DNA from: Dehalococcoidia bacterium
GTDB lineage: Bacteria > Chloroflexota > Dehalococcoidia > UBA2979
Reading direction: 5' to 3'
NCBI GenBank assembly: GCA_963667465.2
Contig: CAXXDN010000001.1
Span: 512,001-576,000, forward strand
Length of the DNA stretch: 64,000 nucleotides
Part shown: piece after piece, positions 23,710 to 28,846 of the stretch
Numbering within the stretch: position 1 is the first letter of the stretch
Layout: each line of letters begins with the position of its first letter
Translations under genes and position numbers: made by a program
The notes under the pieces: generated by a model
Database searches by the model: none
The model's input: only the letters and a program-made list of their open reading frames with translations
Told to the model about the DNA's origin: nothing

Positions 23710-23808
23710 CAGGGCTCCGGCCGCAGTCAGGCGGGCGCGCGCTGGCGCTGCGTGAGATACTGGATCGAGGCCCGACGGGTGCCGGTGACTGAAGGGGGAA
23801 TGCACGCC

Positions 23809-24135
23809 ATGGCGATGCCGACCGACACGACGGACGCGACGTTCAACTCGGACGTGATCGAGAACGATGACCCGGTGCTGGTCGACTTCTGGGCGCCCTG
23901 GTGCGGTCCCTGCCGCATGGTCGCCCCGATCGTCGAGGAGCTCGCCGAGGAGTACGACGGCCGCGTGAAGTTCGTGAAGCTCAACACCGACGAGAACCCG
24001 ATGACCGCCGGCCAGTACGGGATCCGCTCGATCCCCACACTGCTCGTCTTCAAGGGCGGCGAGCCGGTCGGCCAGATCGTCGGCTTCCGCCCCAAGGGCG
24101 ACCTCGCGAAGCAGCTCGACGCCGCGCTGGTGTAG
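23809..24135 (+). CDS. trxA: Thioredoxin
   Basis: VDFWAPWCGPC and SIPT; SD GAAGGGG upstream. Confidence 0.96.
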   Translation: MAMPTDTTDATFNSDVIENDDPVLVDFWAPWCGPCRMVAPIVEELAEEYDGRVKFVKLNTDENPMTAGQYGIRSIPTLLVFKGGEPVGQIVGFRPKGDLAKQLDAALV

Positions 24136-24291: not shown

Positions 24292-24855
24292 TCAGAAGTA
24301 CTTCTCGCTGCCGCCGTAGCCCAGTTGCCTCCCCCGCTCCGTAGCCTTGATGAAACTCCGCAGGCGGCTTTCGAACACCTCCGGGCGCGCCCTGCCGGTA
24401 TCGATGTACGCCACGCGGATGCGGCGGTATGCGGCGGAGAAGCCCTCGTAGTGCGTCCACGCCTGATCGTTCGCCCGGATCGCGTCGAGGATGTCCTCAG
24501 GGAACACGAACTCCTCGCGCAGCACCTCCTCGACCGGCGCGCGAACGGAGGGGTGCAGCAACCCTTCGCCGGCAAGCCAGCGCAGTCGTTCCCTGTTCAG
24601 CTGGGAGTAGCGGCTGCCCCGCCTCCTCGGCGAGAACCGCTGCGCGGCCCGCAGCTCGTCCGGCTTCTTCACGATGCTGTCGATCCAGCCGAAGCAGAGC
24701 GCTTCCTCCACCGCGTCGTTGTAGGGAATGCGCGGTTCGCCCGACGCCTTGTTCGGGTAGACAAGCCAGATCTCAGGCGCCGTGCCGAAGTTCGCCTCCA
24801 GCCAGCGGCGCCACTCCGTGCGGCCGGTGACGTAGAGCGTCTCCCCGATCTCCAT
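24292..24855 (-). CDS. YdeI/OmpD-associated family protein
   Basis: WRRWLEAN...EIWLV, AVEEALCFGWIDS, QRFSPRR..S..S..N. Confidence 0.85.
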   Translation of the reverse strand: MEIGETLYVTGRTEWRRWLEANFGTAPEIWLVYPNKASGEPRIPYNDAVEEALCFGWIDSIVKKPDELRAAQRFSPRRRGSRYSQLNRERLRWLAGEGLLHPSVRAPVEEVLREEFVFPEDILDAIRANDQAWTHYEGFSAAYRRIRVAYIDTGRARPEVFESRLRSFIKATERGRQLGYGGSEKYF

Positions 24856-24875: not shown

Positions 24876-24917
24876 GGCGAGGGCGCCCGTCGTGTGGCGG
24901 CGGCGCGCGCCGCCGCC
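24876..24917. repeat. 42-bp direct repeat, copy 2, with palindrome GGCGGCGGCGCGCGCCGCCGCC
   Basis: Matches 24185-24226; immediately after the FTR stop codon. Confidence 0.85.
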
Positions 24918-24919
24918 CG

Positions 24920-25360
24920 TTACTTCTCGATCTTGCGGCCCTGCTTCTCCTCGAGGCGTGCGAGGGCGCGCCCCTTGTCGGGGTGCGGGTCCTTCACGAG
25001 GCCGTAGATCTCGCGGCCCTCGTGGTCTTCTGGCAGGTGTTCGGTGATGGGAAGACCTTCCTCATTACAGAACAGCAGTCAGTGGCAGTATTTGTACTTC
25101 TGCATCTCCTCGCAGGCGCAGATCCAGGTGCTGCGCTTCACCTCTTCCTCTTTGTCCTCGTAGAAGTTACAGGGGCAGAGCGGACGCCCGAGGTCGTCGA
25201 CGTGCTTGGCGAGGCCGATTACGAGGAACTCGGTGATCTCGCGCTGCGGGTGGAGGTATGAGCCGCTCTTCTCCGCGAACTTCTCCGCGAACTTCCACAT
25301 CTTATCGAGCGATTTCCCGGACGCCTGCATGCGGTCCGCATCGGTCGGTTGCTCGACCAT
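24920..25360 (-). CDS. Ferredoxin:thioredoxin reductase catalytic subunit, probable selenoprotein (TGA at 25079-25081 read as Sec94; 146 aa)
   Basis: CPC-x16-CAC-x8-CH-TGA matches the FTR motif CPC-x16-CPC-x8-CHC. The frame continues LLFCNEEG...KIEK to TAA at 24920. A SECIS-like hairpin follows the TGA. Confidence 0.88.
25038..25074 (-). promoter_or_regulatory. Bacterial SECIS-like element
   Basis: mRNA UGUUC..AUG-A-GGAA-GGUC-UUCC-CAU..GAACA; the apical GGUC loop starts 21 nt after the UGA. Confidence 0.75.
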
Positions 25361-25441
25361 GACACCTCTCCGTCCGTCCCGCTCGCGCTGCGGATCGAGC
25401 GTACCACGGCCGGCGGCCCGCGCCCTGATTCGCTCCGTTCG

Positions 25442-27341: not shown

Positions 27342-28457
27342 TTGCCGGTTGTCGCGCCCGACGATCTGCGGCGCTACCTCGCGCGCATCTTCGAGGCGAC
27401 CGGCGCCCCCGCGGATGACGCCCGGGAGGTCGCCGGCCACCTTGTGGAGGCGAACCTCAAGGGCCACGACTCGCACGGCGTGATTCGCACCGCGCCGTAC
27501 ATCCTGTCGGTGCAGGAAGGCCGTGTCCGGCCGGGGGCGCCGACCGCGGTCGAGCGCGAGACGGAGACGACGGCGCTCGTCAACGGCAACTGGAACTTCG
27601 GGCAGGTCGTCGCCCGCGACGCGATGGCGATCGCGGTCGCCAAGGCGCGTGCGCAAGGCCTCGCGGCGGTTGGCGGCTACCAGGCGGCGCATATCGGGCG
27701 TGCGGGCGCCTACGGCGAGCAGGCCGCGGCGCAGGGCATGGTGGCGCTCGGCTGGGTCAACGGGCACGGCGCCAGCGCCTTCGTCGCCCCGTTCGGTGGC
27801 ACGGCGAGGCGGCTCGCCACCAACCCGCTTTTCGTCGCCGCGCCAACCGGCGACCCGGAGGCCCCGTTCGTGCTCGACATGGCGACGCCGGTGATCGCCG
27901 AGGGCAAGGTGCGGGTGGCGCGCAACCGCGACGCCGCGCTGCCGCCCGGTCGCATCATCGACGGCGACGGTCGGCCCTCGACGGACCCGCACGACCTCTA
28001 CGGCGGCGACCCGCCGGGGTCGAGGGCGGAGGGCGCGCTGCTGCCGCTCGGCGTCGCGCCGGACTACGGGGCTGGCGGTGACGGCGGCGTCGGCCACAAG
28101 GGCTACGCGCTCGCGCTCGCCATCGATCTGCTCGGCGGCGCGCTAACCGGGGCGGGCGCGACCAGTAGCAGCGGAAGCCGCGGCAACGGCTTCCTCTTCA
28201 TCGTCGTCGACCCCGAGCGCTTCGTCGGCCTCGAAGGCCTCGAGGGCGAACTCGCGAGCCTGCTCGGCTACGTGAAGCAGCCTCCATACGCCGAGGGCTT
28301 CGACGAGATCCTGACGCCGGGCGAGCCGGAACGCCGCCGCATGGCCGAGCGCCGCGACGGCATCCCCCTCGAGGACGCGACCTGGCAGCAGATCGCCGAG
28401 GCGGCCGCCTCGGTCGGCGTCGGTCCGTATGACGGGAAGATCGTCGAGGGCGGCTAA
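27342..28457 (+). CDS. Type 2 malate/L-lactate dehydrogenase family oxidoreductase (Ldh_2)
   Basis: GHDSHG, HIGRAG, TNP, LDMAT, GHKGYAL, PGEPE. Confidence 0.88.
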   Translation: MPVVAPDDLRRYLARIFEATGAPADDAREVAGHLVEANLKGHDSHGVIRTAPYILSVQEGRVRPGAPTAVERETETTALVNGNWNFGQVVARDAMAIAVAKARAQGLAAVGGYQAAHIGRAGAYGEQAAAQGMVALGWVNGHGASAFVAPFGGTARRLATNPLFVAAPTGDPEAPFVLDMATPVIAEGKVRVARNRDAALPPGRIIDGDGRPSTDPHDLYGGDPPGSRAEGALLPLGVAPDYGAGGDGGVGHKGYALALAIDLLGGALTGAGATSSSGSRGNGFLFIVVDPERFVGLEGLEGELASLLGYVKQPPYAEGFDEILTPGEPERRRMAERRDGIPLEDATWQQIAEAAASVGVGPYDGKIVEGG

Positions 28458-28846
28458 CTGGAGCTGTTGTCCAGCGTCAGCGGGTTCTCGCCGATCAGGT
28501 GGTCCGGCGCCGGGCGGCCCTGGCCCAGGTCCTCGGCGATGACGCGATCGAGGGCGTCCGGGGTCAGGCCCGCGTACCAGCGGCCCTCGGGGTAGACTAC
28601 GGCCACGGGCCCGCTCTCGCAGATGCGCAGGCAGCCGGCCTTCGTGCGGTAGATCGGGGGCCGGTCGCCCTCGGCGTTCAGTTCGCCGACGCGGCGCTTC
28701 AGCCGCGCCCAGGCGGCGGCGCCCTCCTTCTTCGTGCAGCAGTCCGGACCGATGCAGATGAAGACGTGGCGACCGTAGCCGCCCACGCCGCGCCGTTCCG
28801 CCTCGGCGCGTGCGTTCGACAGAGCCTTGTTCGTCTTGTCTGCCAT
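28454..28846 (-). CDS. Thioredoxin-like [2Fe-2S] ferredoxin
   Basis: HVFICIGPDCC and GCLRICESGP...VYPEG.WY. Confidence 0.85.
   Translation of the reverse strand: MADKTNKALSNARAEAERRGVGGYGRHVFICIGPDCCTKKEGAAAWARLKRRVGELNAEGDRPPIYRTKAGCLRICESGPVAVVYPEGRWYAGLTPDALDRVIAEDLGQGRPAPDHLIGENPLTLDNSSS

Follow-up and report, generated by a model that had tools for sequence, protein, structure and literature searches.

A predicted selenocysteine-containing homolog of the ferredoxin:thioredoxin reductase catalytic subunit, interrupted by an in-frame TGA, in Dehalococcoidia

In a 64,000-nucleotide stretch of Dehalococcoidia DNA (the whole stretch analysed, hereafter the window), a minus-strand open reading frame breaks off at a TGA exactly where the catalytic subunit of ferredoxin:thioredoxin reductase (FTR) has its last redox-active Cys. 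This locus raises the question of whether the TGA is a stop codon, an error or a codon for selenocysteine (Sec, U), and, if the latter, what kind of reductase is encoded. All sequences considered here come from metagenome-assembled genomes.

Reading frame, motif and family

When the minus strand was translated with TGA read as U, one 146-residue frame with a single in-frame TGA (25081–25079) was obtained from the ATG at 25360 to the TAA at 24920. The order of codons is ATG, 92 sense codons, TGA (25081–25079), 52 sense codons and TAA (24922–24920), and the protein reads M-VEQPTD...LCPC-NFYEDKEEEVKRSTWI-CAC-EEMQKYKY-CH-U-LLFCNEEG...KIEK-stop. The features of the locus are as follows.

24920..25360, minus strand: predicted gene for a Sec-containing homolog of the FTR catalytic subunit (translation with TGA as U; PF02943; relatives match over the full length)
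25079..25081, minus strand: in-frame TGA, predicted U94, counterpart of the last Cys in CHC, residue 87 of 1dj7_A (translation, alignment)
25085..25177, minus strand: cluster and redox motif (six residues invariant in a 33-sequence alignment; aligned with CPC...CPC...CHC of 1dj7_A)
25177–25175, 25171–25169 and 25120–25118, minus strand: motif codons of C62, C64 and C81
25114–25112, 25087–25085 and 25084–25082, minus strand: motif codons of C83, C92 and H93
25067..25069, minus strand: TGT codon of C98, at +4 from U94
24923..25060, minus strand: conserved C-terminal extension, about residues 101–146, past the Pfam FTR domain (Pfam match ends at 101)
25365..25371, minus strand: Shine-Dalgarno-like GGAGAGG, 4 bases 5' of the ATG (sequence inspection)

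The motif is spaced C62-P-C64, x16, C81-A-C83, x8, C92-H93-U94, followed by LLF. Tested against CPC-x16-CPC-x8-CHC, it contains five Cys and one Sec, with His before the last position and Ala replacing the middle Pro. Mechanical ORF listing ends the frame at TGA 25081–25079, which bears out the statement of an earlier note on this DNA that the ORF track ends there; the frame, the TGA position, the 52 downstream codons and the TAA at 24920 given in that note were likewise accurate in every detail.

We assigned the protein to its family by profile and structure searches in which U was written as C. The protein matched PF02943 (FeThRed_B, FTR catalytic beta chain) with 86.8 bits against a cut-off of 22, residues 17–101 falling on profile positions 1–89 of 106, and this gene is the only PF02943 copy in the genome. 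The Synechocystis FTR chain 1dj7_A aligned without gaps over 87 residues (E 1.8e-23; query 14–100 = chain 7–93) and its sequence shows CPC-x16-CPC-x8-CHC-MLF, in line with the canonical spacing, then xLF, that the earlier note had quoted. Because the alignment is ungapped, U94 lies on chain residue 87, so that the TGA falls, as had been claimed, exactly on the last FTR Cys. A protein database search returned 1760 homologs; the best 120 of these 1760 carry PF02943, and some are named FTR catalytic chain. An AF2 model built from the 33-sequence alignment had a mean pLDDT of 77.4 (65–69 over residues 81–100), and in a Foldseek search of the PDB its ten best matches were all FTR catalytic chains (probability 1.00, target-normalised TM 0.64–0.67, although with a poor rmsd of 9–10 Å), followed by the FDR-type relatives 7pwe_B and 4tpu.

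The protein shares with the Synechocystis and plant FTR catalytic subunits (PDB 1dj7, 2puk, 2pu9, 7bzk, 7c3f) the pattern CPC-x16-CxC-x8-CHx and the fold. However, it has Sec where they have Cys87 and CAC where they have CPC as the middle motif, and it differs further in about 45 extra C-terminal residues, in the lack of a variable subunit gene and in its non-photosynthetic host. In the 33 sequences, 15 columns past residue 100 are invariant (G102, P104, T106, E107, L109, P110, H113, E114, G115, Y119, G120, D124, P125, G130 and R131).

Decoding of the in-frame TGA

We collected all loci matching the strict motif, which yielded 82 distinct related coding sequences from Dehalococcoidia genomes, and found that the codon at the U94 column was TGA in 69, TGC in 12 and TGT in one. 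Several sequences that do not fit the pattern stand outside this count, namely two distant relatives (L042, L043) and five Cys-form paralogs or orthologs (L040, L041, L121–L123) in which 11 extra residues (such as DGNWPEGLYLP) separate the first CPC from the CAC; genome G020 holds an insertion-bearing copy in addition to its normal Cys copy. In a six-frame search of 41 related genomes, a full-length match with one in-frame TGA was present in this genome (G000); of the 18 other genomes of the genus, 17 had one too. All of these matches span residues 1–146 or 2–146, and TGA-bearing full-length matches also occurred in four further genera of the family (G021–G024), with stop-free copies in G019, G020, G027 and G039. 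That the same TGA recurs in nearly the whole genus indicates that its in-frame position is not due to chance. In a scan of one genome per species, the best 80 of 284 relatives were kept, and all but one were titled Dehalococcoidia, Chloroflexi or Chloroflexota; one kept relative bears the title Thermoflexus hugenholtzii, a Chloroflexota species, and the lone exception, L115, is titled Verrucomicrobia.

Sec and Cys forms are alike in that the same conserved sequence runs on in frame 3' of the column. Crude Nei-Gojobori comparisons of 66 pairs with G000 gave pN/pS values of 0.26 for codons 14–93, 0.24 for codons 95–106 and 0.17 for codons 107–141, figures that are rough, the comparisons with G000 being not independent and one pS exceeding 1. 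Synonymous change was lower over codons 95–106 (pS 0.31 versus 0.44–0.46), in keeping with the SECIS hairpin proposed below. Judged from these ratios, the 52 codons 3' of the TGA are under purifying selection.

The machinery for Sec insertion is recognizable in the genome (2.97 Mb in 2 contigs, 93.6% complete). Profile searches detected SelA (425 bits), the SelB winged-helix domain in a 617-residue frame and SelD (358 bits; gene L003, G000:C1:106747-107682), and tRNA-Sec was found with 77 bits and the ARAGORN anticodon tca. SelA was also present in both of the other Sec-form genomes tested (G022, G024); among three tested genomes with Cys forms only, it was present in G027 and not found in G020 and G039. 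The selD gene itself reads as a selenoprotein gene, having one in-frame TGA in the context CGG-U-AGK with a hairpin after it.

Shortly 3' of the TGA, we further identified a candidate SECIS element.

25047..25065, minus strand: proposed SECIS hairpin, starting 13 bases past the TGA (conservation in TGA forms, pair counts)

In this hairpin, 25065–25063 pairs with 25049–25047, A25062 is bulged, 25061–25058 pairs with 25053–25050, and the loop is GGUC (25057–25054). The 12-mer GGAAGGTCTTCC (core GGAA-GGUC-UUCC), 18 bases past the TGA, is exactly conserved in 68 of the 69 TGA forms and in none of the 13 Cys forms. Part of E-E-G-L-P is encoded by this 12-mer with codons that the genome uses rarely, namely GAA, GGT and CTT (15 of 123 Glu, 12 of 188 Gly and 8 of 148 Leu codons, respectively, in six neighbouring genes), and in the Cys forms the matching residues (E-E/D-G, mostly L, P) are written in other codons. 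Across 19 distinct sequences, 95.5% of cells were paired in the bulged hairpin, compared with 22.6–60.2% in controls slid by 1–3 columns; an ungapped 7-pair hairpin without the bulge was rejected, with 65.4% of cells paired against the 95.5%. Covariation was observed at one pair that changes from UA to CG (24-40) and at another that shows GC, GU, CG and UG; since four of the seven pairs never vary, the covariation rests on two pairs and few sequences. The hairpin is short, and general folding and family searches did not single it out: the single-sequence fold of 65 bases past the TGA was no better than that of shuffles (z -0.82; 37/200 fold as well), RNAalifold picked another stem (columns 31–37 with 58–64) that lacks compensatory changes, and an Rfam scan of 24900–25400 with E up to 10 returned only chance-level mir-1184 and WT1-AS_4 and no SECIS family. 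The SECIS of Escherichia coli fdhF has a GGUC apical loop. The present hairpin resembles it in lying shortly 3' of the UGA, but its stem is shorter, its loop lies at +25 to +28 from the U of the UGA, and no Rfam model matched it.

These observations can be set against the possibility that the TGA is a true stop, in which case the product would have 93 residues and lack the last redox residue, and the following 52 codons would be untranslated or belong elsewhere. Standard ORF calling does end at the TGA, and TGA is an ordinary stop in this genome, as in the OmdA-family gene immediately downstream. However, the downstream frame is kept at the protein level across the 82 coding sequences, with the low pN/pS given above for codons 107–141, and in the 13 Cys forms it follows the upstream part without a break; moreover, a 93-residue product would be short of one of the two redox-active residues, and there would be no explanation for the conserved hairpin or for the complete Sec machinery. 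We therefore regard a true stop as very improbable.

If the UGA is read through, near-cognate decoding or an altered code might instead place Trp, Cys or Gly at this position, and from sequence data alone the inserted residue is indistinguishable. Against such decoding, the column holds Cys in 13 of 13 non-TGA homologs, the genome has tRNA-Sec, SelA, SelB and SelD, and a gene-specific hairpin accompanies the TGA. In addition, TGA terminates the neighbouring gene, which implies that the genetic code is not globally changed. Insertion of another amino acid is thus, in our view, hardly to be expected.

The TGA might also stem from a mistake in sequencing or assembly, or from a nonsense mutation that recently turned the gene into a pseudogene. 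In two other studies, sequencing runs yielded contigs that match this DNA letter for letter across the TGA: record 20 of X6 covers 24960–25126, and record 13 of X2 covers the whole 701 bases, although the present DNA may itself derive from X2. Among the matches listed, no difference was seen at 25079–25081 for any of four runs. Contigs from RNA libraries (X15 record 2; X16 records 7 and 8) also span the TGA, but spanning contigs do not show transcription. One related sequence, L099, which has a TGA without the hairpin and Val at +4, and whose contig title gives a coverage of 1.2x, may well be such an error or pseudogene. For the TGA studied here, the agreement of independent-run contigs at the site, the occurrence of TGA together with the hairpin in 68 distinct coding sequences from many assemblies, and the purifying selection that continues downstream make this explanation extremely unlikely.

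Taken as comparative evidence, these results indicate that the TGA is almost certainly read as Sec at one of the two catalytic Cys positions. The earlier note had read it as Sec in an FTR homolog that gene callers shorten, a reading that the column, the hairpin, the selection and the machinery all support. The checks it had proposed also came out in its favour: homologs have TGA or Cys at the column and conserve the approximately 50 downstream residues, selA, selB, selC and selD are all present in the genome, and contigs from independent runs carry the same sequence across the TGA.

Phylogeny and relation to known Sec-containing homologs

In a quick maximum-likelihood tree of the 82 proteins, computed with C in place of U and with the +4 column included, the 68 hairpin-bearing Sec forms make up one clade (SH-aLRT 97), which is nested among the Cys forms under a midpoint root used for drawing only. 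As the 68 forms are one clade, they reflect a single old Cys-to-Sec replacement, kept since then, rather than 68 independent events. The Sec/Cys label changes twice on the tree, and the second change is L099, which is placed among the Cys forms. The TGA of L099 probably results from an error or a nonsense mutation; the sequence serves as an internal negative control.

At +4 (position 98), 66 of the 69 TGA forms have Cys, whereas every one of the 13 Cys forms has Val; besides L099, two hairpin-bearing Sec forms (L087, L103) have Val. On the tree, the change from Val to Cys98 falls at the root of the Sec clade and is reversed once. A sign test of Sec against +4 Cys on the tree had 1–2 independent pairs and hence no power, so that the association amounts to a single event, and because the change lies on a single branch, the +4 Cys is statistically untestable. 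It could equally reflect a constraint at the RNA level. We found no description of such a Sec-clade-specific Cys at +4.

Sec-containing FTR homologs as such are known. The earlier note had suggested that they may have been predicted before, and rightly so: in the relevant passages of Zhang and Gladyshev 2008 (PMC2398784), homologs of the FTR catalytic subunit are among 7 new selenoprotein families from the GOS ocean metagenomes, represented by 2 sequences with Sec and 10 homologs with Cys; in one read, both redox-active positions are Sec, and a SECIS prediction is shown. A 2022 review (PMC9312934) tabulates Sec-FTR with the motif CxU. Compared by description only, the GOS Sec-FTR (a COG4802/FtrB homolog) is similar to the present protein in having Sec in place of a redox-active Cys, CxU corresponding to CHU here, and its prediction was likewise based on an in-frame TGA, Cys homologs and a bacterial SECIS (PMC2398784, PMC9312934). 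However, the GOS paper highlights the two-Sec read, whereas the Dehalococcoidia protein has a single Sec. Chloroflexi or Dehalococcoidia are not mentioned in the passages of PMC2398784 or in PMC9312934 (0 occurrences in the review), and our literature searches found no biochemical study of any Sec-FTR and no mention of Sec-FTR in Chloroflexi.

We compared the protein with NCBIfam NF041072 (FtrB family double-selenoprotein), and it scored 39.2 bits against a cut-off of 160, which indicates that it is not a member. The two share the same Pfam domain and Sec at the last position of C-x-C; however, members of NF041072 read CPU...CPC...CIU, while the Dehalococcoidia protein has one TGA and CPC as its first motif, together with another spacer and a long conserved C-terminal extension.

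To place the gene within its class, PF02943 matches were surveyed in 401 sampled Dehalococcoidia genomes, 206 of which had a match. By hand count, 77 of the 150 matches listed had one TGA (one of them from the unpublished genome G250), 4 had two and 1 had a TAG, while the remaining 68 were free of stops. Two further types occurred among these matches in other Dehalococcoidia. The first consists of double-TGA FtrB genes (L132–L135) with CPU...CPC...CIU, and the two that were scanned, L132 and L133, are members of NF041072 (195 and 194 bits). The second (L136–L140) reads CPC...CPC...CYU, with a single TGA at the same column, and the one gene of this type scanned against Pfam has a C-terminal rubredoxin-like domain; this type is an FDR-like selenoprotein for which no NCBIfam model scored above its cut-off. 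Taking the single-Sec gene, the double-Sec FtrB and the rubredoxin-fused form together, Sec occupies this position in at least three FTR-domain subfamilies of Dehalococcoidia.

The combined evidence from sequence comparison leads us to conclude that the locus is a real selenoprotein gene, shortened by standard annotation, and a new member of a kind of selenoprotein published in 2008. The single-Sec Dehalococcoidia group is possibly an uncurated subfamily.

Putative mechanism, partners and implications

We propose, with a probability of about 0.92, that the gene, from an uncultured member of the Dehalococcoidia (Chloroflexota), encodes a full-length, 146-residue homolog of the FTR catalytic subunit in which UGA 94 specifies Sec through SelB, tRNA-Sec and the GGUC hairpin, and in which C64 and U94 form the redox pair. 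The UGA at codon 94 would be decoded by SelB and tRNA-Sec, steered by the GGUC-loop hairpin 13 bases past it. FTR works in one-electron steps, in which residue 87 becomes bound to the cluster and its partner Cys attacks thioredoxin. Cys87, the position of U94, is presumably the member of the disulfide that bonds the [4Fe-4S] cluster during turnover; a literature search for Cys57, Cys87 and FTR together found no paper. By homology with this enzyme, C62, C81, C83 and C92 would hold a [4Fe-4S] cluster, and C64 and U94 would be the redox-active pair, with a selenenylsulfide replacing the disulfide. A ferredoxin-type donor may then give electrons singly, the C64-U94 bond opening as in FTR; Se at position 94 would attach transiently to the cluster while C64 attacks the thioredoxin disulfide; and, after a second electron, U94 may resolve the mixed disulfide. 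Homology is thus the basis for the bound cluster, the type of electron donor, the choice of thioredoxin as substrate and the Fe-Se intermediate; the enzyme would be a ferredoxin-driven reductase of thioredoxin or another disulfide, with U94 paired with C64.

A likely substrate is encoded nearby.

23752..24135, plus strand: thioredoxin gene (WCGPC), convergent with the reductase gene; likely substrate (PF00085, 115.6 bits)

Here, an OmdA-family gene (24292–24855, minus strand) lies between the thioredoxin and reductase genes; in most relatives of the genus, the thioredoxin gene directly follows the reductase gene. Among related loci of at least 6 kb, surveyed by motif detection only and from related genomes that are not independent, an ORF with the thioredoxin motif was found within 3 kb downstream in 25 of 61 (25 of 49 TGA-form and 0 of 12 Cys-form loci). 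The genome also encodes two flavoproteins that resemble TrxB but score under the curated cut-off (284 and 243 bits), so thioredoxin reduction need not depend on the Sec-containing reductase. A 130-residue ORF (28454–28846, minus strand), which lies 3.1 kb 5' of the reductase gene in the same orientation, has no Pfam match at E 0.001 but shows weak similarity to thioredoxin-like [2Fe-2S] ferredoxins (NF041612, E 9.7e-11, under its cut-off), and it is conceivable that this ORF encodes the electron donor.

Alternatively, the protein could be a genuine selenoprotein that acts as an FDR-like ferredoxin-dependent disulfide reductase on a substrate other than thioredoxin. Methanosarcina acetivorans FDR (PDB 4tpu), which combines FTR and rubredoxin domains, is a more distant relative (E 1.8e-08 for 4tpu_A), and the Dehalococcoidia protein lacks the rubredoxin domain and is much nearer to true FTR. 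In favour of such an activity, FDR-type relatives appear both among the structural matches (7pwe_B, 4tpu) and in the sequence search (4tpu_A), the conserved 45-residue C-terminal extension lies outside the Pfam domain, and the thioredoxin neighbour, found at fewer than half of the 61 loci, is convergent and not co-transcribed. The FTR variable subunit (PF02941) also had no match in the genome, which is 93.6% complete. However, passages of PMC9025218 describe the variable subunit as exclusive to oxygenic phototrophs and FTRC as occurring in many bacteria, and its absence is therefore to be expected here; the heterodimer with PF02941 defines the classical plant and cyanobacterial FTR, not bacterial FTRC. 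Furthermore, the match to true FTR chains is far stronger than that to FDR (E 1.8e-23 versus 1.8e-08), and the thioredoxin neighbour recurs beside Sec-form loci only. We consider a substrate other than thioredoxin unlikely, though not negligibly so, and retain the FTR-like reading.

With regard to Cys98, we tentatively entertain the idea, which we consider rather doubtful, that its gain alongside Sec introduced a redox step absent from classical FTR and that an Fe-Se intermediate is favoured across the Dehalococcoidia subfamilies. Such a step may involve, for example, a U94-C98 selenenylsulfide.

Although the concept of Sec-FTR itself was already known, these results bear on how the family is annotated and studied. 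Gene callers end this gene at residue 93, and the sole curated NCBIfam model for Sec-bearing FTR relatives misses the protein, whereas an in-frame TGA is present in about half of the PF02943 matches listed from the 401 sampled Dehalococcoidia genomes. Because the replaced residue presumably bonds the [4Fe-4S] cluster in classical FTR, the protein may offer a natural system in which to test selenium-iron chemistry within a disulfide reductase. If the idea regarding Cys98 is true, a U94-C98 bond could park Se off the Fe-S cluster or guard it from over-oxidation in an oxygen-exposed host, and the recurrence of Sec in three FTR-domain subfamilies would point to a selective advantage of the Fe-Se intermediate.
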